The notes under the pieces were generated by a model, which was not told the DNA's origin, ran no database searches, and saw nothing but the letters and a program-made list of their open reading frames with translations. From a virus (taxonomy: Duplodnaviria; Heunggongvirae; Uroviricota; Caudoviricetes), in IMG/VR virus record IMGVR_UViG_2541047695_000003: a DNA stretch of 34,489 nt. One strand, given 5' to 3'. This document shows positions 8,815 through 22,989 of this stretch, in pieces (the first letter of the stretch is position 1; every line of letters starts with the position of its first letter). The position numbers and the translations under genes were made by a program.

Positions 8815-10326
8815 ATGTTTAATCTTTTTCGACGCAAAAAGGCGGTAGAAACTCCAGTTAAAACTAATCACCGCCAGCAACAACCAAAAATTTTCATCGA
8901 TAAGCAAGTAGAAAAATTCCAGAAATCTCTGGCGACTCGTAGTTTAGGACTGGTTGGTGATCGTATTGATGGATCACTTCAACAAGACACCATTACAGGA
9001 ACCTTCAATAAGGCTCTCAAATCGAATGGTAAGCGCCTTTATGATCAGGGTCGTACTCTGGCCTTAAACACTTCCGTAGGCAGTCGCTACACGCAATACA
9101 TCACCGATATGGTGGTAGGTACTGGCCTAGATCCGAAGCCGTCAGTTGTTAAACCAAATGGAAAACTTGATAGCGCACTGAATAAGCAGATCGAGAATGC
9201 TTTCTGGAAGTGGGCGCAGAATGCTAAACGCTTCTCTCGCAATGGTCGTTTTAACTTCCGTGAATTGCTGGTAATGGCTGAACGTGAGCGCGTTATGGGT
9301 GGTGAGTGTTTCATCGTTTTAACTAAAGAAAACAATGAGTTAAATGTTTCTATCCTGTCTGCTGATAAATGCGACTGGTCGCTAAACCGTGAAATAAGCA
9401 AAGAGCGTGCGATATATCAAGGTGTGGAGTATGACGTAGAGACGATGAAGCCCGTAGCATACTGGTTTCGTAAAATCAACCTACTGACTCAGACCTACAC
9501 TGGTGATAACTATCGCGTCGATGCTTCGCAAGTATGCCATTATTATCAACCACTTGCGGCTGAATCCCTGCGTGGTGTGACTGACTTCCTGCCAGTGATT
9601 AAGGATATCGCACATCAAGACGCATTCCGCGAAACTGCGATCGTCCAGAAACGTATTGCGGCTAGTTCTATGGGCTTTATCGAACGTCCGAAAGATTCTG
9701 GTGACGATTTTGATACTGGTGAAGAGGATGAACAATATCAAGCGCCGGAAGTAGTACAGGATTTTGCACCTGGTACTATTCAGGAATTACCGGAAGGGGC
9801 AACGATCAAGAGCATCCAGGCGACGCAAAGCGGTGATGATTTCAAATCCTTTAACGATGCGATGTATGGTAGCGTCGCGATGGGCTTAGGCGTGTTTAAA
9901 CAGGGCTTGACTGGTGACACTAGCCAAATAAATTACAGCGCCAGTAGATTCGGTGATTTAATGCAACGACACCGCGTTAAAGCACTGCAAAACAAATTGA
10001 TTGAAACAGTGGTATTGCCAATTTTCGAAGCATATCTACGCCATTATTCCGCGCGTGGTATTGTTCCGATTCGTATTACTGCAATTCCGCATATTATCGA
10101 TAACACTACTATTATTCGTCCTCGTTTTGAATCCGTCGATCCATTTAAAGACGTAAGCGCCGAGATTGCTTTAATTGATAACGGACTTAAATCACGTACT
10201 GCCGTTATTCTTGAACGTGGTGATGATCCTGAAAAAGTATTCTCAGAGATTCAAGCCGAAAAGAGCGCACTAAATATTATCGTTAATGGCGAGGGTGAAG
10301 AAAAAAATTCCCCAGCCGATCCCTAA
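8815..10326 (+). CDS. Portal protein (lambda gpB-like)
   Basis: 503 aa, synteny TerL-W-portal-protease, AAGGGGTAA SD. Confidence 0.85.
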   Translation: MFNLFRRKKAVETPVKTNHRQQQPKIFIDKQVEKFQKSLATRSLGLVGDRIDGSLQQDTITGTFNKALKSNGKRLYDQGRTLALNTSVGSRYTQYITDMVVGTGLDPKPSVVKPNGKLDSALNKQIENAFWKWAQNAKRFSRNGRFNFRELLVMAERERVMGGECFIVLTKENNELNVSILSADKCDWSLNREISKERAIYQGVEYDVETMKPVAYWFRKINLLTQTYTGDNYRVDASQVCHYYQPLAAESLRGVTDFLPVIKDIAHQDAFRETAIVQKRIAASSMGFIERPKDSGDDFDTGEEDEQYQAPEVVQDFAPGTIQELPEGATIKSIQATQSGDDFKSFNDAMYGSVAMGLGVFKQGLTGDTSQINYSASRFGDLMQRHRVKALQNKLIETVVLPIFEAYLRHYSARGIVPIRITAIPHIIDNTTIIRPRFESVDPFKDVSAEIALIDNGLKSRTAVILERGDDPEKVFSEIQAEKSALNIIVNGEGEEKNSPADP

Positions 10327-10371
10327 TAACCAACGGGGGCGCAATGTCCCCAATTAATTAAAGGTGATTAA

Positions 10372-12372
10372 ATGCTTAAATTTCGCCGCGATCTTAACGG
10401 TTACGGTGGAGTTATTAACGAAGGGCATAACGATCAATACGAATTTGAAATTGCTTTCTCCAGTGAACAGCCGTATCAGCGCCAATTCTGGGATGAGCAA
10501 AATCAAGAGATGGTGGTACTAGATGAAATTCTGGTACATACACCGGAAGCGGTTGATCTGTCTCGTCTGAATAATAACGCTCCGTTGCTGTTCAATCATA
10601 ATTTCGATAATCATTTAGGTGTAGTCTGCGACGCTCGAATCGATGCGGATAACGTAGGTCGTGCTCTGGTTAAATTCTCTAAGCATGGCACTTTGGCTAA
10701 TGATATTCGCAATAAAGTCATTGAAGGTACGATGGAAAAAATTTCTGTCGGCTATGACATTAAAGAATATCACATCGATTACGCCAAAGGGCAATTGATT
10801 GTTACTAAGTGGGCGCCCTATGAACTCTCATTTGTCACCGTTCCTGCTGACGATACGGTCGGTTTAAATCGCTCTCTAAATACTATCACAGTTAATTTGG
10901 AGGCTAAACGCGATATGACTAAAGAACAAATTGAAGAAATCAAAGAAGAACAAGAATCCGCTCAGGTTGAAGAAACTCCGGTAGAAGAAATTAAAGAATC
11001 GGAAGTTGAAGAAACTCAAGAGCGCCAAGTTGAAGAGAATAAAGAAGATGAAAATCTCGAAGACGGAAAAGACGCTGAACATCCTGAAAGTGTTGATGAT
11101 GATAGTTCAACTGTTCGGGAAGAAGAAATAAAAGAAGAACGTGAAGCTGCTCCGGTTGAAGAAGAAAAAATCGAAGAAGTGGCTGAACGTTCCGAAGAAG
11201 ACGAATTAGAAATTCGCGAAATTGCACGCGAACTAAATATTGATGACGAAGAATTGAAACGCGCATTGGCAATTAAAGACATGACGCCGGAAGCATTCCG
11301 CACTAAGGCACTAAATAATCTCGTCAATGCTCAACGTAATAACGAACAAATTAAGGACTCTAAAATGGAAAAAACTTTTGACCTGAACAACGTAATTCGC
11401 TCTCTGGTAGATGGTGCTGCTCTGGGTGCTAACGAAGCTGAATATTCCTCTATGGCTGCTGGTGCTGCGATGCAGCGTGGTCGTGCTGCTCGTGGTGGCT
11501 CTGTATTCGTTCCGGCTGCTGCTCTGCGTGCTGCTGCTGATGGTAACACCAAAACTACTCTGACCGCTGTAACTGACGAAAAACTGATGACTGAATCCTA
11601 CATCGAAATGCTGATGCCGGAATCTGTTCTGGGTCGTCTGGGTGTGACTGTTTACAGTGGCTTGAACTCCCCGACCGCTATTCCAAAAATGACCGCTTCC
11701 AGCGTTGACGCTTTCGGCTTCGTTGATGAAAACGGTGCTGCACCGGAAAGCAAAGCTGAATTTGCGAACGTGAAACTGTCTCCGAAAACTTTTGCTGGTG
11801 GCAACCCGATCAGCCGTCAGTCGCTGAAAACCGTTCCGGGCATCGCTACCCTGATCACTGATCACATTAACAAAGCTGTTCGTATCAAACTGGAACAACT
11901 GATTCTGTCTGATAAAGAAAATGCTCGTGGTCCGGCTGGTCTGGTTAAGCAACTGGTAGACGCTAGCCGCGTTACCAAGAAAGCTGCTTTCTCTTATAAA
12001 GACTTCCTGAAAGAAATTGCAGCACTGACCGACGCTGGCGTTCCTGCTCAGGCGATCAAGTTTGCAATGAGCGGTGCAACTGCTGCTGAACTGGAATCTA
12101 CCCTGAAAGATAACGGCGTTTCCGGTTATATCATCGAAAACGGCAAACTGGCTGGTTACGAAGTAGTTACTTCTGGCGTTATCCCGGCAGACCACATCGT
12201 TCTGGGTGACTTCTCCGGTATTACTATCGGTGAGTGGGGAGGTCTGGAACTCGACATGGATCTAACTACATATAGGGATCGTGGTGCGGTAGTGCCTCGT
12301 ATCTTTGTAGATTTGGACTACGTTGTAGCACAGCCGGAAGCCCTGAAAGTTCTTCACATCTCCGCTGAATGA
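10372..12372 (+). CDS. Prohead protease - acidic scaffold linker - HK97-fold major capsid protein fusion
   Basis: 666 aa; N-domain resembles caudoviral prohead serine proteases; residues about 185-330 are E/K-rich; C-terminal 336 aa resemble the HK97-type capsid family. Confidence 0.9.
   Translation: MLKFRRDLNGYGGVINEGHNDQYEFEIAFSSEQPYQRQFWDEQNQEMVVLDEILVHTPEAVDLSRLNNNAPLLFNHNFDNHLGVVCDARIDADNVGRALVKFSKHGTLANDIRNKVIEGTMEKISVGYDIKEYHIDYAKGQLIVTKWAPYELSFVTVPADDTVGLNRSLNTITVNLEAKRDMTKEQIEEIKEEQESAQVEETPVEEIKESEVEETQERQVEENKEDENLEDGKDAEHPESVDDDSSTVREEEIKEEREAAPVEEEKIEEVAERSEEDELEIREIARELNIDDEELKRALAIKDMTPEAFRTKALNNLVNAQRNNEQIKDSKMEKTFDLNNVIRSLVDGAALGANEAEYSSMAAGAAMQRGRAARGGSVFVPAAALRAAADGNTKTTLTAVTDEKLMTESYIEMLMPESVLGRLGVTVYSGLNSPTAIPKMTASSVDAFGFVDENGAAPESKAEFANVKLSPKTFAGGNPISRQSLKTVPGIATLITDHINKAVRIKLEQLILSDKENARGPAGLVKQLVDASRVTKKAAFSYKDFLKEIAALTDAGVPAQAIKFAMSGATAAELESTLKDNGVSGYIIENGKLAGYEVVTSGVIPADHIVLGDFSGITIGEWGGLELDMDLTTYRDRGAVVPRIFVDLDYVVAQPEALKVLHISAE
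11365..12372 (+). CDS. Nested in-frame major capsid protein from an internal start
   Basis: AAGGA (11353-11357) 7 nt before the in-frame ATG at 11365; codon usage switches to gct/ggt/cgt/ctg from this point. Confidence 0.5.
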   Translation: MEKTFDLNNVIRSLVDGAALGANEAEYSSMAAGAAMQRGRAARGGSVFVPAAALRAAADGNTKTTLTAVTDEKLMTESYIEMLMPESVLGRLGVTVYSGLNSPTAIPKMTASSVDAFGFVDENGAAPESKAEFANVKLSPKTFAGGNPISRQSLKTVPGIATLITDHINKAVRIKLEQLILSDKENARGPAGLVKQLVDASRVTKKAAFSYKDFLKEIAALTDAGVPAQAIKFAMSGATAAELESTLKDNGVSGYIIENGKLAGYEVVTSGVIPADHIVLGDFSGITIGEWGGLELDMDLTTYRDRGAVVPRIFVDLDYVVAQPEALKVLHISAE

Positions 12373-12504
12373 ACTCCTGTAGAACCTTCTGAACCTTCCC
12401 CCGATTTGGGGGAAGAAAATCTGATTCCATCTCAGGAAGAAGAAGTTCAAGAGGTTACGGCGAAAGCCACAGTTAAAAAAGAACGTAAGACTAAAGCAAA
12501 ATAA
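12373..12504 (+). other. 43 in-frame sense codons after the capsid UGA, closed by TAATAA: candidate read-through extension
   Basis: Hand translation TPVEPSEPSPDLGEENLIPSQEEEVQEVTAKATVKKERKTKAK; no internal start with an SD; the terminator follows the extension, not the UGA. Confidence 0.35.
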
Positions 12505-12509
12505 TAATT

Positions 12510-12537
12510 AGCCCTGCCTTAATGGTGGGGCTTTTTT
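12510..12537 (+). terminator. Rho-independent terminator or attenuator after the capsid region
   Basis: 9-bp stem 12510-12518/12524-12532 (two G-U pairs) followed by T6. Confidence 0.7.
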
Positions 12538-12567
12538 GTATGTAAATACTCCATAAAGGGGGTAACT

Positions 12568-12858
12568 ATGTTCAAATTATCAGAATCACAATTATCAAGA
12601 ATGTTTCGAAGTGCTCCTGTATTTTCGGTGGAAGGTGGTAAATCAATTCGTGCTTATCATGAAATTACCACTACCGACGAACAAGGGGTAATTACAGAAT
12701 CAGAATTTCTATTTTGTCGTGAGGGAGACTTAAATCAGGGTGATGTTGTCATTGTAGACGGTGAACGCTTCAAAGTTCAATACGTTAAGCGCAATGGTGA
12801 TAATACTTCTGATTGCTTTATTGCTCGTGCAGGGGGTACACATGCTCGCTACCGTTAA
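12568..12858 (+). CDS. Head-tail adaptor or head-closure protein
   Basis: 96 aa directly after the capsid gene; GDVVIVDGERFKVQYV motif typical of head-tail joining proteins; AAGGGGGTAA SD. Confidence 0.7.
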   Translation: MFKLSESQLSRMFRSAPVFSVEGGKSIRAYHEITTTDEQGVITESEFLFCREGDLNQGDVVIVDGERFKVQYVKRNGDNTSDCFIARAGGTHARYR

Positions 12859-13264
12859 TAATATGCCTAGACTGAAAATTAAACGCGCCTTGCAGGATAT
12901 TATCGAACAAGATTTAGGTCTGGCTTTAAACGTAGAACAAACTCAGCAAGGCTTTAGTGATGATGTGGTTTGTTGGATTACCGGAATGAATGAGACTTAC
13001 AATAGGGTCCGTGGTGGTAATGCAATGCAAGCTGAATGCGTTATCGAAATGCAGTTGTATTCTCAGAATCATGAAACCAAAATTCATGAGGGTATTTGCC
13101 AGATAATCCAGATTCAGCCTGATAATCCACGTTTTAAAGATTTGGGCTTCTCTATTTCAGATATCACTCCAGTAGCTTCTAATACCGATTATGACGATGA
13201 TTCTAGTGATGGGGGTATCGTTGGGACACTTAGCCTTAAATTTTCTTATCTAGCGCGTTTTTAA
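12842..13264 (+). CDS. Neck or tail-completion protein
   Basis: Start chosen at ATG 12842 (AGGGGG SD, 17-nt overlap with the upstream gene) rather than 12761; ATG 12863 is an alternative. Confidence 0.65.
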   Translation: MLATVNNMPRLKIKRALQDIIEQDLGLALNVEQTQQGFSDDVVCWITGMNETYNRVRGGNAMQAECVIEMQLYSQNHETKIHEGICQIIQIQPDNPRFKDLGFSISDITPVASNTDYDDDSSDGGIVGTLSLKFSYLARF

Positions 13265-13273
13265 GGGGTAATA

Positions 13274-14107
13274 ATGAATATTACACAAGATAACTTAGAC
13301 ATTTTCACGGGGTCACATGTTGAAGTCTCCGTGTCTACTATGGTGGATAACCAGCCGGACTTTTTCGATCCTGCATTTAGTCCTATCGAGAACATCGCAG
13401 CATTCCCGACGATAACCGAATCCACAGAGATCCAGACGTTAGAAGAGTATGATCAGGACGCTACGGGGAAACTTGCTGGTTATCGTAAACTTGAATCAAC
13501 TACGTTAGTAGTAAACCGTGTTCTGGATGACGAACATCAAGACATGTTGATGAAAGCGGTGAATGATAAAACTCCTTTACGCTTTCGTATGTTCTATGTT
13601 GTGAACTCTGGCTATAGTGCTGCTAACACAGGTTACTACGTCATTTTTGACGCTTATGTCTCGTCACATAAAACAAAATCCGGTGATAACAAAGTTACTA
13701 CAATCGAGTTTAAATTAGAACCTGATGGCGGGATTCTAGATCGCGGTATTGCTACCGAAGGCCGGATCTTACGTCAAGGTGATTTTGGTTTGGGCGCTGG
13801 TGTACATCCATTCACAGGTCCGATTGATAGCGAAGCATTAGCCGGAAACCGTTTCGTAACTTATCAGGGATCGAGCGTATCTAATCCATTTAGTGCTGAT
13901 ACTTCACTAATTCACGTTCAACCTAATGAAGATGGTGGATGGCAATTAACTTGCACCGCTTCCGGCGCACCACGTTTACGAGTTCGCACAGTCCAGAAAG
14001 ACGGTAATTCTGGATGGGTGAAAGTGTATTCCACAGAAGAAAAACCGACACCAGCCGAGATTGAAGCCGTTTCTATCCATGACCGGATCGACTTCGGGGA
14101 ATACTGA
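13274..14107 (+). CDS. Tail-tube (major tail protein) paralog with a C-terminal fibre-like domain
   Basis: Residues 1-155 align by eye with the 156-aa tube protein (DIFTG/DIFSG, AAFP, LMKAVND/LIKATED, ...DG); C-terminus shares the KPTPAEI block and preceding segment with the fibre. Confidence 0.8.
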   Translation: MNITQDNLDIFTGSHVEVSVSTMVDNQPDFFDPAFSPIENIAAFPTITESTEIQTLEEYDQDATGKLAGYRKLESTTLVVNRVLDDEHQDMLMKAVNDKTPLRFRMFYVVNSGYSAANTGYYVIFDAYVSSHKTKSGDNKVTTIEFKLEPDGGILDRGIATEGRILRQGDFGLGAGVHPFTGPIDSEALAGNRFVTYQGSSVSNPFSADTSLIHVQPNEDGGWQLTCTASGAPRLRVRTVQKDGNSGWVKVYSTEEKPTPAEIEAVSIHDRIDFGEY

Positions 14108-14180
14108 TTGCTTCTCTAAATAAAACATGACGCGGGAGGTTAACGCCTCCCTTATTCCTGTTTTATAGTGAGGTGATTCG

Positions 14181-17100
14181 ATGCAGTCGATCCAATTTAA
14201 ACGAACAAATGTTTCTGGCAAAAAACCAACGCCGGAACAATTACAGGTCGGTGAGGTAGCAATCAACCTTAAAGACCATGTTATTTTTACCAAAGACCGA
14301 GATCATGAAGTAGTTCAAATCTCTGTTTCTCCTGAAACTCACGCGGCACTAGAATCTAAAGTTGATGCTAATAAAAAAGAACTGGATAGCACAATTGCAG
14401 TAAATGACCGCAATATTCACGCTAAAGTAGATGAAATTAAACAAACTACTGATGCAACCATCGCAGCAAATCACGCAGAAATTAACAATAAAGTTGATGT
14501 AATTAAACGCGAAACCGACGCGACAATCGAGGCCAATAAAAATAAAGCTGCTTCCGATCTTGCTGGTGTTAAAGCTGAATTGTCGGATACCATCAACGCT
14601 AATAAAAATGCGGCTGCTGTAGCAACTCAGGAACTGGACACCCGCATCAATAAAAAAGTTGATGATATTAAATCCCGTACCGATGCAACCATCGCAAGCA
14701 ATGACAAAGCAATCAATGACAAAGTTGATTTGATTAAGGCAGAAACTGACCGCACTATCGCAGCAAATCACGCCTATGCGGAAAATCAGTTAACTGACAC
14801 CTACAATAACCTTACTGGTGTGATTGCAGCCAATAAGCAAGAGGCAGCGGATAACGTCGCAGCATTAACCCGTGATGTTGAAGCCAAAAATACAGCAATT
14901 CATAGCAAAGTTGACAATAACAAGTCTTACACTGATTCTGAATTGGCACGTTTAGAAAGCCGTATTGATGCAGCCGATGGATCTGCTGATGGCAAGTACA
15001 TCAAAAAACACGTAAACACTTATACTGATGGTTATTTGCTGTCTAAGACCGCAAACTATTTTGATGATCCAAATGCGCGTAATCTTGATTACTTTGGTGC
15101 ATTCCGCATGAATGACCTGGCGGGTCATATTGCAATGATCTTGCATGTTCCGCATCCATCTGGTGTTAATCATGCTCGTGGCTTCGAGTTCACTTATGGG
15201 TCTAATCCACATGCTACTGTAAGAACATACGGCTATGATGAATTGGGACATTTGGCATATTCTCACCGCATGTATCATGAAGGTGATAAACCTACTCCGG
15301 CTGAAATTGGCGCATATTCGAAAGCAGAAATTGACCGACTGTTCCAGAAGACGCTTAATTTTGGTATCGAGGGTGGTTGGTTTAAACTAGGCACTTTGAC
15401 AATGCCACAACAACACGGTCGCACGGCTAAGATCCGTTTGGTTGGTGGTAACGGTTATAACGTAGGACATAATGGACAAGCCAATATTATCGAATTGGTG
15501 ATTCGATGCGGCAACAATAGCCCGAAAGGTGTTGTATTCAATGCGTATTATACTATTTGGCATCATGAACAACATTTTTGCGCTATTCCAACCGATGGCG
15601 ACAATTACGATCTTTACGCTTACTACGGTGCACATACAGGATTTGTTTTAGCAGAATATCAAGTTTCTTCCGGTGGTGTTTCTTTAAACCTGTTGGATAC
15701 TCCTGAATATCTGGGTGGTGAAAAACCTGTTGCAGATGAAATTTTTGATGCTCTTAACATTTCATCGTTCAATAACTTTAGCAACCGTGGGACGTTAAAT
15801 TTTGCTGGCAATCATCAAGGCCAATATGATATTGAGCATTTAAACGAACAACCGACAAATGCTAAAAAGATGTTGCGTCGCTTCCGTAGTTGTGCACCAG
15901 CTACAATCTGGCATGAGACAGTTGATGATAACGCATATCGTCTTGCTACTGGATACGAAGATACAAATCAGGAATTATTGCTGTCAGCAACATCCGGGTT
16001 ACATGTCAAGAAATTAACATTGGATGGCGGTGTTACTGGAAATTCTGGTATTGATATTCGTCGAGGACCAAACGAATCAAGCCATTTTAATTTCATGGAT
16101 TATCGCACTGGACAAGATGTTCGTAATGGCTGGTTTGGCTTCGGTGATGGTCAGACCAAAGATTTTATTTGGTGGAACGATAACGGTCAAAACTCTATAA
16201 ACCTGATTGAAGATGGTGAATTGCATATTACTGGCGGTAAAGGCCAGAAAATTGTAATGAATAGCGAAGTTGCATTATCTGAAAATGCTCGTTTGGCTGT
16301 CAAAGGTGGTAACTATGGTTTAATCCTTCGTAATGATGGTTCTAGCTTCCATATTCTTACTACCGATTTAAAAGATTCCTTTGGGACGTGGAACACTCGT
16401 AGACCATTTAGTTATGATTTCGCCGAAGGTGGATTAGATCTAGGTGGCACAGCTACCGCACGCTGTTTACATCTGGGAATTGATGGTAGCACCCGCATCG
16501 AAGATAATATGGTGTTTAGATCAGGGTCTCGTCAGTCAATGGACTATATTGAATTAATCCATTGGGGTAACAGTAATACCGCTCGTAACAACGTTTTGAG
16601 TATGAAAGACTCGAAAGGATTCCTTGCTGAATTTGAACGCGTGGGGGGTACTAACGGCGTTAAAACCAGATTCTTTGGCGAAACATTCACTGACGGTACA
16701 TTATACCTAAATCAGATGAATAATAGCTCTGAACGATTCTCTATCAATAACTGGGGAAATTCAGAAGTTGGTCGCGCGGCAGTGATGGAAGTCGGTGATT
16801 CCAAAGGTTATCACTTCTATACTGAACGTAGGACAGATAACAGTTTGATGTTTGATGTTGCTGGCGCTTTTACTGTGCATGGACCTTCCGGGATTACTAT
16901 CAAAAACTCTGCTGGTGCTCGCCACGTCTGGTTTAGAGATGATAGCGATACGGAAAAGGCTGTTATCTGGGCTACAGATGAGGGTATTTTACATATTCGC
17001 AATAACCACGGTGGACAATTTACACATCACTTCCAGGGCGCGATGATTAAACTGGAAGGGCGTGTTCCTTATGCCGCAGATCAAGGACTTATCCGTGGTG

Positions 17101-17705
17101 AGGTTTCTGGTGGTGCATATGTTGCATGGAGAGACCGACCTGCTGGTTTGTTGGTTGACTGTCAACAAAGCGTTGATAGTGCTCATGCTATTTGGAAAGC
17201 GGTTGATTGGGGGCGTAACTACATCGCTGCTATGGACGTTCATTGTCCCGGTGATAGTAATAATACTGCGGCAGCGGTTCTTCATGTTCAGGGTGCTGAT
17301 TATCAATTCCATGCAAGTGGAGAATTTCATGCCACTGGTAACGGAAACTTTAACGATGTTTATATTCGTTCCGATCGTCGTCTGAAAATTAATGTTGAAG
17401 ATTACGAAGAAAATGCGGTGGATAAGGTAAATAAACTCAAAGTTAAAACCTACGATAAAGTTAAATCTCTTAATGACCGAGAAGTTATAGGTCATGAGAT
17501 TGGTATTATCGCACAGGATTTACAAGAGGTATTACCGGAAGCTGTTAAAACCGCAAAAATTGGTGGTTTTGATAACCCAGAAGAAATTTTAACAATTTCA
17601 AACTCCGCAGTGAACGCGCTTTTAATTAAAGCGGTCCAAGAAATGAGCGAAGAAAATAAACTTCTTCGTGAACGTCTTGCTGCAATTGAAGCTAAATTAG
17701 GGTAA
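14181..17705 (+). CDS. Tail fibre with N-terminal anchor, coiled-coil repeats and a C-terminal self-cleaving chaperone domain
   Basis: 1174 aa; MQSIQFKRTNVSGKKPTPEQLQVGEVAINL fibre N-terminus; about 6 repeats of KVDxIKxxTDATIAxN; C-terminal SDRRLK motif. Confidence 0.9.
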   Translation: MQSIQFKRTNVSGKKPTPEQLQVGEVAINLKDHVIFTKDRDHEVVQISVSPETHAALESKVDANKKELDSTIAVNDRNIHAKVDEIKQTTDATIAANHAEINNKVDVIKRETDATIEANKNKAASDLAGVKAELSDTINANKNAAAVATQELDTRINKKVDDIKSRTDATIASNDKAINDKVDLIKAETDRTIAANHAYAENQLTDTYNNLTGVIAANKQEAADNVAALTRDVEAKNTAIHSKVDNNKSYTDSELARLESRIDAADGSADGKYIKKHVNTYTDGYLLSKTANYFDDPNARNLDYFGAFRMNDLAGHIAMILHVPHPSGVNHARGFEFTYGSNPHATVRTYGYDELGHLAYSHRMYHEGDKPTPAEIGAYSKAEIDRLFQKTLNFGIEGGWFKLGTLTMPQQHGRTAKIRLVGGNGYNVGHNGQANIIELVIRCGNNSPKGVVFNAYYTIWHHEQHFCAIPTDGDNYDLYAYYGAHTGFVLAEYQVSSGGVSLNLLDTPEYLGGEKPVADEIFDALNISSFNNFSNRGTLNFAGNHQGQYDIEHLNEQPTNAKKMLRRFRSCAPATIWHETVDDNAYRLATGYEDTNQELLLSATSGLHVKKLTLDGGVTGNSGIDIRRGPNESSHFNFMDYRTGQDVRNGWFGFGDGQTKDFIWWNDNGQNSINLIEDGELHITGGKGQKIVMNSEVALSENARLAVKGGNYGLILRNDGSSFHILTTDLKDSFGTWNTRRPFSYDFAEGGLDLGGTATARCLHLGIDGSTRIEDNMVFRSGSRQSMDYIELIHWGNSNTARNNVLSMKDSKGFLAEFERVGGTNGVKTRFFGETFTDGTLYLNQMNNSSERFSINNWGNSEVGRAAVMEVGDSKGYHFYTERRTDNSLMFDVAGAFTVHGPSGITIKNSAGARHVWFRDDSDTEKAVIWATDEGILHIRNNHGGQFTHHFQGAMIKLEGRVPYAADQGLIRGEVSGGAYVAWRDRPAGLLVDCQQSVDSAHAIWKAVDWGRNYIAAMDVHCPGDSNNTAAAVLHVQGADYQFHASGEFHATGNGNFNDVYIRSDRRLKINVEDYEENAVDKVNKLKVKTYDKVKSLNDREVIGHEIGIIAQDLQEVLPEAVKTAKIGGFDNPEEILTISNSAVNALLIKAVQEMSEENKLLRERLAAIEAKLG
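17370..17702 (+). other. Peptidase S74-type intramolecular chaperone auto-processing domain of the fibre
   Basis: SDRRLKINV...IGIIAQDLQEVLPEAV...LLRERLAAIEAKLG matches the endosialidase / T5 L-shaped-fibre C-terminal chaperone pattern. Confidence 0.75.
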
Positions 17706-17743
17706 TTGGAAAGCGGGGAGAAATCTCCGCTAAGGATTCTTAT

Positions 17744-18040
17744 ATGGGATATTGGGTAAGTAGTGAAATTAATACTAAAATCGATGCTTTAAAATGGCAT
17801 GTATTTGATATTCCTAACGGCTATGGTACTGCTCGTGCTGGTGTCGCTGTAATGCGTCATAATGCTGGTGGTGGGTGGTCTGATGCACATATTAACGTAG
17901 ATGGTTTGACCGTTGCTCGTCGTCGTGGTGGGACCAATTGGGGATCTACTATAAATTCGTTTGTTCCTGCTGGCTGCACCGTCTCCTTTGGTTTAGGGGG
18001 TGAAGGTGGTGTTGAATATTTTAAATTCATGGAGTTTTAA
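17744..18040 (+). CDS. Small Gly-rich protein, FDIPNG paralog 1 of 3
   Basis: 98 aa; conserved xW, FDIPNG(W/Y), GL, WG, V(S/T)F, YFKF blocks shared with the next two genes. Confidence 0.85.
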   Translation: MGYWVSSEINTKIDALKWHVFDIPNGYGTARAGVAVMRHNAGGGWSDAHINVDGLTVARRRGGTNWGSTINSFVPAGCTVSFGLGGEGGVEYFKFMEF

Positions 18041-18042
18041 TT

Positions 18043-18348
18043 ATGGCTGGATGGATAAATCAAAGAATGTCAAACGCTATTAGTATTTGGGCTAATGGTG
18101 GATATTTTGATATCCCCAACGGCTGGGTTACTGATTCATGCGGAATTGTTTTTGCTCATATGGAAGCCATTAACGGTGCTGGTGATCTTGATTCTGAATT
18201 GGCTGTAAATGGATTGATTGAATCAGGTCATCATGCTGGTGATGCTGGGAGTTGGGGCGCTAGTTCTTTAGTTGGCGCTGGTGCTACCGTTAGCTTTACA
18301 TTGGGTAAAGGTAGTTTGCATTATTTTAAATTCAGGAGAATGCACTAA
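18043..18348 (+). CDS. Small Gly-rich protein, FDIPNG paralog 2 of 3
   Basis: 101 aa; starts 2 nt after the paralog 1 stop. Confidence 0.85.
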   Translation: MAGWINQRMSNAISIWANGGYFDIPNGWVTDSCGIVFAHMEAINGAGDLDSELAVNGLIESGHHAGDAGSWGASSLVGAGATVSFTLGKGSLHYFKFRRMH

Positions 18349-18650
18349 TGGCATTTTGGGTAGATGGCGCTTTGGGGAATAGGGCGGGTAAAGCAAATCA
18401 AGGATGGTTTGATATTCCTAACGGTTGGACAGCCGACGCTTTCGGGACTATTTCATTCTGTGCTCATTCTTCCGGTGGTGGCGGTGGTGACTCTGAATTG
18501 CTTATTCATGGTTTGTGTGTTTCTGGAAGCCATAAGGGTCATGATTGGGGACAGATTCATTCTTGTATTGCACCGCAAGGGGCGGTAATTACCGTTAGCA
18601 CAAATAGGGGGATCGCTCATCTTCGTTATAGACGTTTGAGCAACCGCTAA
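18348..18650 (+). CDS. Small Gly-rich protein, FDIPNG paralog 3 of 3
   Basis: 100 aa; TAATG overlap with paralog 2. Confidence 0.85.
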   Translation: MAFWVDGALGNRAGKANQGWFDIPNGWTADAFGTISFCAHSSGGGGGDSELLIHGLCVSGSHKGHDWGQIHSCIAPQGAVITVSTNRGIAHLRYRRLSNR

Positions 18651-18704
18651 ATAAATAGAATTACGGGTATGTGCCCTATTGTTTAAAATAGAAGGAAAAG
18701 AATA

Positions 18705-19175
18705 ATGACTACTAAATTTGATATTTTTTCTGGTGGCCTCGTTGGTCTGTTTCTGCATGAAGAAGTAACTAACACCGATCTTGACAGTGAAAGCTATCTG
18801 GAAATTCCAGAATGTGCGGCTTTCCCGGAAACTGGTGTAGAACGTTCTACTATCGATGTTCCTAACTTCGGTGGTCCGTATAACCGTAAGCTGGTTGGTC
18901 GTATGTCTGTACCGGATATCGAACTTTCGATCAACTACATGCCGGGTAACGAAGTACACGAAAAACTGATTAAAGCAACCGAAGACGGTAAGCGCGTACA
19001 GCTTAAAATTGCTTACTACATCGACGCTACGAAAAAATCTGGTGTACATATCGCTTATAACGGCTTCCTGTCTAAAACTACCATGACTGGTGGTGAGGAT
19101 GCTGTAGTAGGCCGTACCTTCACCTTTGTAGTAGATGGTGCTCCGGTTAAACAAGCTGTTTTCCAGAAACTCTAA
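18705..19175 (+). CDS. Major tail (tube) protein
   Basis: 156 aa, highly optimised codons, directly upstream of the G/T chaperones, followed by an attenuating terminator. Confidence 0.85.
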   Translation: MTTKFDIFSGGLVGLFLHEEVTNTDLDSESYLEIPECAAFPETGVERSTIDVPNFGGPYNRKLVGRMSVPDIELSINYMPGNEVHEKLIKATEDGKRVQLKIAYYIDATKKSGVHIAYNGFLSKTTMTGGEDAVVGRTFTFVVDGAPVKQAVFQKL

Positions 19176-19183
19176 TATTATCT

Positions 19184-19208
19184 AGCCATCCTTCGGGGTG
19201 GCTTTTTT
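19184..19208 (+). terminator. Rho-independent terminator or attenuator after the tube gene
   Basis: AGCCATCC-TTCG-GGGTGGCT followed by T6. Confidence 0.8.
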
Positions 19209-19257
19209 GTTTCCAATTCTAAATAAACATATCTAATTAACTTAAGAGGAAACAATA

Positions 19258-19566
19258 ATGAATATTAATGAAATGTTAGCCGCACTTTCTCCGAAACGCG
19301 AATCTCTGACCATCGGTGGATTTACTTTCTATGCTCGCCCTATGTCAGTAAAAGAATTTAACGAACATGTTTTCAATACCGATAAAGAAGACCGTGATGA
19401 ACGTTCTATTCTTCGTTGTATTGAAGATGAAGACGGTAAGCCAGTATTTGAATCTATTGAACAAGTTAAGGCACTGTATACTAACGTCCGCAGTGAATTA
19501 ATCGGTTTGGTTGCTCAAGCGTCATTGATGCAAGATCCGGCGGTAATTGAAAACGAGGTAAAGTAA
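19258..19566 (+). CDS. Tail assembly chaperone (gpG-like)
   Basis: 102 aa between the tube protein and the tape measure. Confidence 0.8.
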   Translation: MNINEMLAALSPKRESLTIGGFTFYARPMSVKEFNEHVFNTDKEDRDERSILRCIEDEDGKPVFESIEQVKALYTNVRSELIGLVAQASLMQDPAVIENEVK

Positions 19567-19937
19567 ACCCGCTTCTGAATTTCTATTTCCGGCAAATGAT
19601 GAGATCGGGGCTTAGTAAAGATGAAATGGATAATATGCCAATCACTCTATTTTGGAAATTATACATTTTCGACACCTACTTAGAACCACAAAGCCCCGCG
19701 TTTCATGATATGCAGAATGCGATGTTGCAATATTCCATGTATATGACGTCGCAAGGAATGACACGCGAAACTGCAAAGAAACTCAAGCCTAGCCAATTCC
19801 AATTAATTAGAGAAGAAAAACTCTTTAAAACTAAAGAAGAACTGGAAGAAATTGCACGCAAGAAAGAAGAAGAACGTAAAGCGGCAATGCTGAACATGTT
19901 TGATCCATCTTTGCTTGAGAAACTCAGAAGCGGTTAA
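19258..19937 (+). CDS. Tail assembly chaperone G-T fusion by a predicted -1 frameshift near 19558-19564
   Basis: The -1 frame is open from 19551 to 19937; the overlap window is only 19551-19563 (AAACGAGGTAAAG) just before the G stop TAA. Confidence 0.55.
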
Positions 19938-19948
19938 AGGGGTAATTT

Positions 19949-22378
19949 ATGACAAAACATATAGTAACAATAGAAGGGGATAATAAAGGGCTAAAGAGAA
20001 GTACCAATGAAGCCGCCGACCTTCTCGATAGTTTGTCTGAAAAGGCAAGTAATATTGATTTTGGTGGTGGCTTATCTGGTCTGACTGGATCTCTTCGTGG
20101 GATCGCTGGCTCTGCTGGTTTAGCTGCTGGTGGTATCGGCTTAGTTGCGACCGCAGTGGTTGCAGCCGCTAAAGCTGGCGCGGAATACGTTAAACAATAT
20201 TCAGAAGTATCTAAGGCGACCGGACTCTCGATTGAATCCCTTCAAAGACTGGAAAAGGAATTTTCTGGTACTGGCCTAACAGTTGAAAAATTCGGTGATA
20301 TCAACAAAGACACCTTAGATAAGATGGGTGATGCATGGGCTAACGGTGGTGGTATTGCTGATGACTTAGAATCGGTTGGCCTTAAGTTAGAAAACTATGC
20401 TCACTTCATGACTGATCCGCAAGGTGGTATGAAAGCGGCGATCCAAGTGTTCTATGACATGAAGAAAGCCGGAAAATCAATGGCTGAAATCAAGTTCATG
20501 ATGGAATCTTTAGCCAGTGATTCAAGCCATATGACCAGCCAGCTTGAGAAATATAATACTGCTCAAGAGGCGATGATCGCTATTCAGAATCAATCTGTTA
20601 ACGTCACCGAAGAAAACGCTAAAAAATATGATAAATTTTCTCAAAATATCAATAAGCTGGAAAATAACCTGAAAGGTGTCGGTATGACCATTTCTGGTCC
20701 GCTGGTTGATAGTTTAAACTGGTTATTTGACTGGTTTAATATTGATTGGGAAAAGAGTTCTCTATTCAGGGCATTAGATCGACTGAATAAAGAAGGCAAG
20801 ACCGCAACTGGCGGTATTCTTAACGCCAACCATAAAGACGCTCAAAAAATTATTGACAAGTACAATAAAGAAAAGCGTTGGAATAATCTGGCAGATTGGG
20901 AAAAGGCCGCGATCCGTGGTGCTGGTGTCGATCCTCGTACTGCTGGCTTTGATGTTGAAGGATTTAAGAAACGTTTTGGTGATTCTTATAAGAAAAATGG
21001 CTCTCTGATTGTTGTCGATAACGGGGAACATCTAACCCGCAAGGCAGATCCTAACCGTGATTTGACTATACCAAATAAACCAGTAAGACCAGAATCATTG
21101 GGTAAGTCTGGTAATGAGAAGAAAGCCGAAGAAGAAGCACGCAAGAAAGCGGAAGAGGCAGCTAAAAAGGCTAAGGAAGCCGCAGAAAAAGCACAGAAAG
21201 CACGCGAGGATGCAATCAAGCGACTGAATGCACTTGATGTTAAATTGCAAGGGCAAGTTGCAGCGTCTATCACTTCTCAAAATAGCCAGTTGCAAAACAG
21301 CTTAAAAGATGTGAACGACGCGTTAGCTCTGGGCTTAATCTCTCAGGAAGACGCAGCCGCGAAACGCCAGGCGCTAATCGATCAGAATACTGAAAACGTT
21401 TATAAAATGATGTTGGGTGCTGATCCGATTGATGCTCTGAATGCTTTAACACAATTGCAACAAATCAGGGACAACGAGCTAGAAAGCCATAAACGGTTAC
21501 TTGATGGTAAAGCTATCTCCTACGAAGAATATATGCGTCGTGTGAACGATACCGAGCAAAACTATTCTCAGATTGAAAATTCTTTACAGGGAATGGATGG
21601 TTATAAAACCAATCAATTAACTAGTAGTTATGATTATCAAGACTCAAATAATCCGTTTGCTAAATTTAATGCAATCGATAAAGAGAAATCGGATGCTGAA
21701 CAAGATTATAAGACCGATAAACTCAAGATTGATGGGATCACCGATCCGGCTAAACGGATGGAAGCATTAGAAAAACTCAATGAAAACCATCAAAAACGAA
21801 TGGCTGCAATTGAGAAGAAATATGCTGATGCTCGCCAGTCAATAGCCGATGATATGTACGGCGGTTTTGCTGCTGCAATGACTCTCTTCGGGCAGGAAAA
21901 CACTAAAGCTATGCAGATGGCTTTCAATGCTCATAAAGCATTCTCTATCGGACAAGCGACGGTGAACATGTGGACGGCTGCTACCGATGCATGGAACGAT
22001 CCGACCAACGTCACCACAGGTCAAAAAATCGCGGCTGCTGCATTGGCTGTTTCTCAGAACATGGGGAACATCGCAAACATCAAGTCTACTAACGTTAGCG
22101 GTATGGCTCATGATGGTATTGATAACATCCCTCGTGAGGGTACATGGTTGCTTGATAAGGGTGAACGAGTAGTTGATCAGCGTACTAACGGTGATTTGAA
22201 AGACTTCCTTGCTGCTCAAAAATCAGGTGGTGGTAACTCTCAGCCGATTGAAGTTAATGCGCCTTTGAACATTAACGGCAACGTTAATAGCTCAGACAAG
22301 ATGGTCATGGATGCTATCAAACGTCACGCTAAGTTTGTTGCTCAGGCGATAGAAGACGTTCAGCGTCGTAAGATGTAA
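19949..22378 (+). CDS. Tape measure protein
   Basis: 809 aa, Gly/Ala hydrophobic segments, long coiled-coil and low-complexity KKAEEEARKKAEEAAKKAKEAAEKAQKA, position after G/T. Confidence 0.9.
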   Translation: MTKHIVTIEGDNKGLKRSTNEAADLLDSLSEKASNIDFGGGLSGLTGSLRGIAGSAGLAAGGIGLVATAVVAAAKAGAEYVKQYSEVSKATGLSIESLQRLEKEFSGTGLTVEKFGDINKDTLDKMGDAWANGGGIADDLESVGLKLENYAHFMTDPQGGMKAAIQVFYDMKKAGKSMAEIKFMMESLASDSSHMTSQLEKYNTAQEAMIAIQNQSVNVTEENAKKYDKFSQNINKLENNLKGVGMTISGPLVDSLNWLFDWFNIDWEKSSLFRALDRLNKEGKTATGGILNANHKDAQKIIDKYNKEKRWNNLADWEKAAIRGAGVDPRTAGFDVEGFKKRFGDSYKKNGSLIVVDNGEHLTRKADPNRDLTIPNKPVRPESLGKSGNEKKAEEEARKKAEEAAKKAKEAAEKAQKAREDAIKRLNALDVKLQGQVAASITSQNSQLQNSLKDVNDALALGLISQEDAAAKRQALIDQNTENVYKMMLGADPIDALNALTQLQQIRDNELESHKRLLDGKAISYEEYMRRVNDTEQNYSQIENSLQGMDGYKTNQLTSSYDYQDSNNPFAKFNAIDKEKSDAEQDYKTDKLKIDGITDPAKRMEALEKLNENHQKRMAAIEKKYADARQSIADDMYGGFAAAMTLFGQENTKAMQMAFNAHKAFSIGQATVNMWTAATDAWNDPTNVTTGQKIAAAALAVSQNMGNIANIKSTNVSGMAHDGIDNIPREGTWLLDKGERVVDQRTNGDLKDFLAAQKSGGGNSQPIEVNAPLNINGNVNSSDKMVMDAIKRHAKFVAQAIEDVQRRKM

Positions 22379-22428: not shown

Positions 22429-22989
22429 ATGTTCAAATCCAAGAATATTAAAATCACAGATTTTACTCTTAAATCAAAACAGCCTTTCTTCAAGGCGCAA
22501 TCTATCTCCGGTAAGTTCCAGCGTCGCTTTACTGGCATCCATTTTTACGAAGCAGAATTTACCGCGAATTACATGGCTCAGGATATTAACGAAGTAAAAG
22601 AATTTGTAGCACGTCACCTTTTTGGTCGTCCTTTTAGTGTGCCACTGTCTTACTTTTCAAAATATACAGGCGATGTACGCCAGATGGTTACGGCTGCTGC
22701 TGGTACTGCTCGCGGTGGGCGTAAGGTAAGACTCTCCAACTTCACCGGAACACTGAAAGCGGGAACTGTCATCCAGTTTGAGAACCACAAGAAAATCTAC
22801 ACGATCACCGAAGACGTGAAATCAGGTGGTGAAATGAAACTCTTCCCTAACTTGCGTCAAAACGTCCTGGCTGGTGAGGTGATCAAGTATCAGAACGTAG
22901 AAGGTGAATTTGTTCTCAAAACTGAAAACATCGATTGGAAGATCGCCCAGATTGGCAAGATGAAATTCGAATTAGTGGAGAATGTATAA
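22429..22989 (+). CDS. Distal tail protein (T1- or GTA-gp12-like, tentative)
   Basis: 186 aa, first gene after the tape measure; pattern SGKFQRR...FVARHLFGRPFSVPL recalls the DUF2460-type family. Confidence 0.7.
   Translation: MFKSKNIKITDFTLKSKQPFFKAQSISGKFQRRFTGIHFYEAEFTANYMAQDINEVKEFVARHLFGRPFSVPLSYFSKYTGDVRQMVTAAAGTARGGRKVRLSNFTGTLKAGTVIQFENHKKIYTITEDVKSGGEMKLFPNLRQNVLAGEVIKYQNVEGEFVLKTENIDWKIAQIGKMKFELVENV

Follow-up and report, generated by a model that had tools for sequence, protein, structure and literature searches.

We suggest that the gene at 13274-14107 (plus strand) of an E. coli prophage encodes an anchor for side fibres, in which a tail-tube fold is continued by a connector of the type known from the T4 fibre protein gp36. 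The DNA analysed is the IMG/VR record IMGVR_UViG_2541047695_000003 (34,489 nucleotides, called the window below as a whole), and the 277-residue gene product is called the anchor. According to our preferred reading, to which we assign a probability of roughly 0.65, the anchor forms a low-copy tube-fold ring carrying side fibres, and in this lineage the fibre was split off at a gp36/gp37-type joint. This reading is drawn from the fold, the tube paralogy, the module homology, the joint motifs and their strict co-occurrence, the fused forms among the relatives, and the presence of separate terminator, tube and Dit genes. The anchor itself is probably a structural tail protein composed of three parts: a tube fold, an adaptor/shaft module and a gp36-type connector.

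The connector is located at the very end of the anchor (residues 250-277 and the stop codon, 14021..14107, plus strand, KVYSTEEKPTPAEIEAVSIHDRIDFGEY). We detected that the last 28 residues, ending in KPTPAEIEAVSIHDRIDFGEY, match the C-terminus of T4-type gp36. In the virulent myovirus vB_EcoM_G37-3 (Krischvirus), the gene preceding the gp37 homologue ends in ELYHEGHKPTPAEVGAVPLNAVIDFGTF directly before its stop codon, and the 28 residues of the anchor align with this gp36-position protein end to end (46% identity, E=3e-5). The extreme C-terminal tail D-F/L-G-x-Y/F was found in the anchor: it ends in DRIDFGEY, the Krischvirus gp36-position protein in AVIDFGTF and T4 gp36 in VQDFGYY. These 28 residues, the functional key element of the protein, had gone unnoticed in the first-pass annotation.

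The next gene encodes the tail fibre (1174 aa, 14181..17705, plus strand), whose residues 1-50 form a gp37-type N-terminal joint domain (14181..14330, plus strand, beginning MQSIQFKRTNVSGKKPTPEQLQVGEVAINLKDHVIFTKD). By tblastn, the fibre N-terminus matched 1,071 T-even-type phage records at the N-termini of their gp37 genes ('long tail fiber distal subunit'); the N-terminus of T4 gp37 was read directly, and the gp37-type N-terminus is conserved in all split-form relatives. The co-occurrence of the two halves of the joint was tallied in 95 related loci, with D[FLA]G.[YFE]$ as the tail pattern. Leaving aside two incomplete contigs, the gp36-type tail and the gp37-type N-terminus of the following gene occurred together in 31 of 31 complete loci and were both absent from the 62 others (62/62). 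All split-form proteins end in D-x-(I/V/L)-D-(F/L/A)-G-x-(Y/F), with Y-x-x-x-x-K-P-T-x-x-x-x-x-A ahead of it.

The gp36-gp37 pair of T4 shows the same arrangement, with a C-terminal DFG.Y/F in one gene, an N-terminal IQFKR…GE.AINL.D…FTKD in the next, and the same gene order as the anchor and the fibre. The T4 gp36 trimer binds the N-terminal region of gp37, building the distal half-fibre (PMC3004832). The other end of T4 gp36 binds gp35 and gp34, and T4 has a contractile tail with the fibre hanging from its baseplate, whereas in the anchor the gp36 body is reduced to about 28 residues plus one shaft module and is fused to the tube-fold domain of a non-contractile tail. We infer the trimeric state of the anchor arm, and its binding to the gp37-type N-terminus, from T4 only. 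Strong comparative evidence suggests that the C-terminus of the anchor is the docking site for the adjacent fibre. The earlier proposal of a docking ring for this fibre thus gains strong support, from the joint motifs and from the fusion of tube fold and fibre in most relatives.

The Pfam family PF03903 (Phage_T4_gp36) does not match the anchor, which bears the terminal piece only and is not filed as a member of the gp36 family. P0088, a close relative of 1209 aa, does match PF03903, at 28.8 bits with a cut-off of 26. The link between the anchor and gp36 is made through the Krischvirus gp36-position protein, the terminal motif and the co-occurrence with the gp37-type N-terminus.

Residues 1-158 of the anchor (13274..13747, plus strand) form a tail-tube-fold domain, paralogous to the tube protein and presumed to be the ring-forming part. 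The canonical tail tube protein of the window (156 aa, 18705..19175, plus strand) was identified by phrog_158 'major tail protein' (3.4e-20) and by Pfam Phage_TTP_12 (6e-5). The first-pass annotation had aligned the N-terminal 155 or so residues of the anchor with this protein by eye, and the searches bear the alignment out: BLASTP gave 20% identity over 138 aa (E=3e-4), residues 11-154 of the anchor match phrog_158 as well (2e-10), and an N-domain profile built from 15 homologues recovered the tube open reading frame (ORF) with E=3.8e-18, the sole significant non-self match among the 186 ORFs of the window. The AlphaFold model, confident for residues 14-160, has the tail-tube beta-sandwich fold, in agreement with the tube relationship proposed at first. 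Membership of the tube family was established by phrog_158 and by the profile matching the phage's own tube protein; the anchor has no match in Pfam at E<=0.1, none in NCBIfam, including the tube models of both, and its profile found noise only among PDB sequences. PDB 9occ_B, listed as 'putative neck whiskers protein gp24', was dropped as a lead, since the paper shows that gp24 is the Sf11 tail tube protein.

By its gene context, the anchor is a paralogue of the tube protein and not the major polymerising tube subunit, since a separate canonical tube gene precedes the chaperone and tape measure protein (TMP) genes, both in the window and in almost all relatives inspected for gene order. It was correctly described as a separate gene rather than a frameshift extension of the tube gene: it is an independent ORF with an ATG start and AAGGGG 5-9 nt upstream. 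The assignment of the anchor as Dit is ruled out by the separate Dit encoded after the TMP gene. Its assignment as the tail terminator is ruled out by its tube-type fold and by the terminator fold of the upstream 133-aa protein.

Residues 159-249 (13748..14020, plus strand) comprise a conserved Gly-rich segment followed by a fibre-shaft module. In the homologue alignment, G163, D170, G172, G174, G176, G182, D185 and G191-N-R193 of the Gly-rich segment are invariant. Residues 193-267 of the anchor resemble a module of the fibre at residues 300-380 (15078..15320, plus strand; 30% identity, E=0.003), and a C-terminal profile recovered the fibre with E=4e-4, again as the sole significant non-self match among the window ORFs. 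The resemblance to the fibre that had been claimed for about 120 C-terminal residues is therefore real and spans about 75-80 residues. The motif KPTPAEI is located exactly where it had been reported, at 14042-14062 in the anchor and 15288-15308 in the fibre, with five of the seven codons different.

The explanation given earlier for this resemblance, an old duplication, does not hold. The matching fibre segment lies inside a block about 84% identical at the nucleotide level to T-even-like myoviruses, and the module is widespread, recurring up to seven times in long fibre proteins elsewhere, which rules out a local duplication. Judging from the sequence comparison, gp34/36/37-type fibres commonly contain the shared module as a unit.

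The relatives of the anchor show how the tube fold and the fibre are related. A profile search of 1.84 billion representatives resulted in 271 cluster representatives (50% identity), and the domains were tallied in the best 150 of them. Of these 150, 107 have a length of 400-1,563 aa and start with the tube-fold domain (followed in 85 of the 107 by the second module), 13 are plain proteins of tube size and 24 are long fibres having the C-terminal module only, in up to seven copies. The adaptor module follows the tube domain in 91 of the 113 representatives beginning with it. An S74-like motif was found near the C-terminus in 31 of the long tube-domain proteins among the best 150, and for one of them, P0101, it was confirmed by Pfam Peptidase_S74. 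Peptidase_S74 is a mark of trimeric fibres.

According to these sequence data, the tube-fold N-terminus usually heads a long protein, and many of these proteins are recognisable fibres. In the 62 loci lacking the joint motifs, the tube-fold domain heads a long protein (most of 700-1,200 aa) at the same position, and those sampled directly precede the tube gene. Gene order was compared in 16 distant viral contigs of about 30 kb and a Klebsiella pneumoniae prophage. The order is portal, fused major capsid protein (MCP), two ORFs (one of about 100 aa and one, terminator-sized, of about 132 aa) and the tube-domain protein. Next, usually with no gene between, comes the tube gene (about 152 aa), and then chaperones G and T, TMP and Dit. 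In the split lineage, to which the window belongs, the tube-domain protein has 277 aa or an intermediate length of 342-1209 aa and is followed by a separate fibre gene.

The hosts of the fused forms were named through homologues of the terminator (the 133-aa protein) and through one Klebsiella locus; the family is represented among E. coli, Salmonella and Klebsiella prophages and those of related hosts. A profile search of genome contigs with the alignment of distant members gave no match. Among cultured phages, tblastn with the anchor and one distant member detected PQ671644 as the sole match. Under the name 'Escherichia phage DCP80', this record (PQ671644.1) is classified as a Gaprivervirus (Straboviridae) of 141 kb; its first 22 kb or so are a siphovirus structural module syntenic with the window. 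In that part (positions 1-22000, locus L001) the MCP is 43% and the tube protein 49% identical to those of the window, and the module looks foreign to the remainder of the record. A chimeric assembly, or the joining of two phages, is the probable explanation.

The prevalence of the fused form, together with the recent acquisition of the distal two-thirds of the fibre, would suit a non-functional remnant, that is, a 277-aa ORF left as the 5' fragment of a fused tube-fibre gene broken by a T-even-like fibre cassette. We regard this as very improbable. Homologues of the anchor keep a constant length of 275-281 aa in six genera (E. coli, Shigella, Salmonella, Providencia, Edwardsiella and Proteus), and the ratio of non-synonymous to synonymous substitution rates (dN/dS) is 0.12-0.27, alike in the N- and C-terminal halves. 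In addition, the extreme C-terminus is conserved as well, its co-occurrence with the gp37-type N-terminus being perfect, and the intermediates of 342-1209 aa keep the tail.

In the proposed mechanism, the tube-fold domains of the anchor would assemble into a low-copy hexameric ring (a single one, or very few) stacked in line with the tail tube. From this ring the C-terminal arms would project, joining in groups of three, like gp36, to capture the N-terminus of the trimeric gp37-type fibre encoded at 14181-17705, as gp36 joins gp37 in T4. Side fibres would thus be carried by the ring, at two trimers per hexamer provided that every arm is engaged, and would make the initial, reversible contact with the cell surface.

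The expression unit points to a low copy number. The anchor gene starts 9 nt after the terminator gene and shares with the stopper and terminator genes a unit bounded by hairpins, one after the MCP gene (12510-12532) and one in the gap between the anchor and fibre genes (14134..14151, plus strand, GC-rich, GGGAGGttaaCGCCTCCC and then T-rich). The stopper (head closure, gpFII/Hc1-like, 96 aa, 12568..12858, plus strand) is encoded by the first gene of the unit, its position is conserved in relatives, and it was identified by Pfam Phage_attach (2.2e-5) and phrog_161 'head closure Hc1' (1.8e-3). The tail terminator (133 aa, 12863..13264, plus strand) ends 9 nt upstream of the anchor gene; sequence searches gave no identification for it, and it was assigned by its terminator fold. 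Homologues of the stopper and the terminator form six-subunit rings in solved phage necks. A hairpin of varying sequence was found by eye in nine of the nine anchor-fibre gaps printed (eight lineages and the window), and the suggestion of low copy rests on this recurrence 3' of the anchor gene, on the shared unit and on the 9-nt gap.

The same hairpin may be read in another way. The high-copy MCP and tube genes are likewise followed by hairpins (the one after the tube gene lies at 19184-19203), as would be expected if the anchor were a minor tube subunit co-polymerising at random in many rings, its stubs or fibres decorating the shaft in the manner of SPP1 gp17.1*, lambda gpV and T5 pb6. Both faces of a tube-fold ring should fit the tube, the sequence contains nothing that restricts the anchor to one position, and decoration of tube proteins is common (PMC12617516; PMC10038345). 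The steric argument is opposed to this: most relatives carry a fibre of 400-1,000 aa on the same domain, which is implausible on every ring. The anchor gene also directly follows the terminator gene in the same hairpin-delimited unit, and the anchor, only about 20% identical to the tube protein, is an old divergent paralogue rather than a variant made by frameshift or read-through. We consider such co-polymerisation unlikely, and the dispersal of anchors along the tail equally so.

SPP1 gp17.1*, the Ig domain of lambda gpV and that of T5 pb6 do share with the anchor a tube fold having a C-terminal surface extension. These extensions are immunoglobulin-like (Ig) or fibronectin type III (FN3) domains on the major tube protein, produced in SPP1 by frameshift, whereas the anchor is a separate old paralogue with a fibre module and a connector.

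The closest functional analogue of the fibre-carrying ring is T5 p140, with its p132 collar and the pb1 L-shaped fibres, in which a diverged tube paralogue is likewise dedicated to fibre anchoring. Like p140, the anchor is a tube-fold paralogue with a gene of its own beside the major tube gene. It lacks the undecorated tandem double tube domain and the p132 collar that go with p140, and no p132-like or Ig-like match was found in the window genes scanned. T5 p140 is a bare duplicated tube domain that forms a trimer as a pseudo-hexamer, and the fibres are held by a separate 12-mer collar of Ig-like p132; the anchor has a single tube domain of 158 aa extended into a gp36-type connector, or into a fibre in the fused relatives. 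The genes also lie on opposite sides, the anchor gene upstream of the tube gene and the p140 gene downstream.

By analogy with T5 p140, we slightly favour a ring at the tube's distal end, beside Dit. The gene order suggests a different place, directly under the terminator, where the ring would end the tube head-proximally with the terminator or neck complex and the fibres would be neck whiskers (compare the lactococcal neck passage structure and the T4 collar). All loci checked for gene order share the succession stopper, terminator, anchor, fibre, tube, just 9 nt separate the terminator and anchor genes, and for T5 p140 the gene position relative to the tube gene has been taken to mirror the position in the virion (PMC10038345). 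A tandem duplication would explain the adjacency to the tube gene equally well, however, and by estimate a neck-anchored fibre of about 1,170 aa would be unable to reach the tip of a tail with an 809-aa TMP. The long receptor-binding fibres of the characterised Gram-negative siphophages are also distal (PMC10038345; PMC12617516). We therefore regard the head-proximal ring as possible and clearly less probable than the distal one. It is a variant of the fibre-carrying ring, the mechanism unchanged and the position other.

A further explanation places the tube-fold domain outside the DNA conduit, as a peripheral attachment domain on Dit, the hub or the neck, like lambda Stf or T5 p132, where a hexamer would not be required. 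The characterised side-fibre anchors of Gram-negative siphophages are all external collars round a tube-like ring (PMC10038345; PMC12617516; PMC11830787), and a fibre trimer that folds first would hold three tube-fold domains together, which is awkward for a six-fold ring. The lambda collar, at the gpV-gpM junction, has 12 collar domains for four fibres (PMC12617516). The Stf of Ur-lambda resembles the fused relatives of the anchor, in that the fibre chain supplies its own anchor domain and trimeric fibres are placed on a six-fold tube via flexible linkers (PMC12617516), but this domain is a small beta-sheet collar outside the tube ring, not a tube-fold subunit. The Dit proteins with a tube-fold N-domain (monocin FtbK, 80alpha, TP901-1) offer a precedent for the in-line arrangement, a tube-fold hexamer in line with the tube serving as the fibre platform; the Dit platforms of Gram-positive phages and the monocin hold the fibres non-covalently (PMC11830787). 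A peripheral location of the tube-fold domain appears to us improbable, to about the same degree as co-polymerisation or slightly more.

Several points weigh against the low-copy ring with side fibres. Among cultured phages, only the odd record PQ671644 carries the anchor, and the fold of the arm was predicted with low confidence (AF2 predicted local distance difference test, pLDDT, below 50 for residues 163-240). The tail of the anchor compared with T4 gp36 itself is not significant by BLASTP; the Krischvirus protein only is significant. A six-fold ring with three-fold fibres requires a symmetry solution. The indications of position disagree, with the order terminator, anchor, fibre, tube pointing to the head-proximal end, and the T5 and lambda precedents and the fibre length to the distal end. 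Two of the hairpins precede the high-copy tube gene, which makes simple stepwise attenuation untenable; the hairpins may instead stabilise the upstream message at its 3' end.

The window, by its gene content, is a siphovirus-type prophage of E. coli, with an average G+C of about 42%. A 12-kb stretch around the anchor gene was matched in 56 of 5,426 complete E. coli genomes, chromosomal in every case, and its identity is 90-96% in most of the 56; for E. coli PK8568 (NZ_CP080126) it is 95.6% over 10000-22000. The structural module comprises TerL (start 6327), a head-tail joining protein of 165 aa (start 8307), the portal (start 8815) and a 666-aa protease-MCP fusion (10372-12372) in which an acidic, Glu-rich linker separates the protease and the MCP. 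The stopper, terminator, anchor and fibre genes follow, and then three ORFs of about 100 aa (17744-18040, 18043-18348 and 18348-18650), the tube gene, two chaperones, TMP (809 aa, 19949-22378), Dit (22429-22989) and tip proteins. The other genes of the window encode a large serine integrase, an Ant-like regulator and an endolysin.

The nearest cultured relatives of the MCP fusion (about 30% identity) are roseophage R4C, the Rhodobacter RcCronus group, phiHAP-1/VP882 and Synechococcus phage S-CBS3. Such kinship to roseophage- and Synechococcus-type phages is unexpected for an E. coli prophage.

The fibre is composed of the gp37-type N-terminus, a coiled-coil-like insert, a Gp34_trimer domain (residues 644-745), a gp37-like distal part and a Peptidase_S74 intramolecular chaperone (residues 1064-1123). 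Positions 15045-18667 of the window, covering the fibre from about residue 288 and the three ORFs after it, are about 84% identical at the nucleotide level to the gp37-like region of Krischvirus vB_EcoM_G37-3, and 75-94% identical to parts of other T-even fibres. From these similarities, it looks like a recent exchange of a fibre cassette between a temperate siphovirus and T-even-like phages.

The insert of the fibre (14340-15050, about residues 55-290) consists of some 230 repeat-rich, coiled-coil-like residues with units of the type VD.IK..TDATIAAN and a weak match to Pfam Apolipoprotein. It separates the joint domain from the first globular module, and the Krischvirus gp37 homologue is without it. 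The three ORFs of about 100 aa after the fibre gene are tandem paralogues: the second and third are 36% identical (E=9e-15), and motifs such as FDIPNGW are shared. No convincing match to them was found in Pfam or PHROG. The trio also follows the fibre gene in Krischvirus G37-3 and is absent from some E. coli relatives with a different fibre; the three are candidates for fibre-tip accessory or adhesin proteins.

In the E. coli relatives L012 and L025, the fibre (42% identity to the window) and the tube gene (about 60%) are replaced together, with the anchor about 80%, G 92-98% and TMP 96% identical. The anchor stays similar as fibre and tube are replaced, so the anchor ring must work with rather different tube proteins.

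The fastening of side fibres on non-contractile tails is known for few model phages, through the collars of T5 and lambda and the Dit platforms of Gram-positive phages. The comparison of genomes suggests another solution here, in which the tube-fold subunit itself is the base of the fibre. No such fibre attachment was found described for any studied phage: in the literature searched, which left subscription journals outside its coverage, no description was found of a tube fold covalently continued by a fibre or a gp36-type connector. We put forward tentatively, at somewhat less than even odds, that in this large prophage family (Enterobacteriaceae where the hosts are named) the fibre or gp36-type stub is itself a subunit of a hexameric tube-fold ring, unlike any solved tail.

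If this is true, two trimeric fibres would share one six-fold conduit ring, and the binding of a fibre could act directly on the tube lattice; the six-fold ring with a three-fold fibre presents a concrete symmetry question. With the ring under the terminator, it would mean long receptor-binding neck fibres on a siphovirus. The gp36-gp37 joint of T4 appears to be used outside the long tail fibre of the T-even phages, connecting a siphovirus anchor to a cassette exchanged with virulent myoviruses. The split at a T4-type joint would make the receptor-binding part exchangeable, and here that part seems to have been swapped with T-even-like phages. Such a portable joint is relevant to the evolution of host range and to the engineering of exchangeable fibres.

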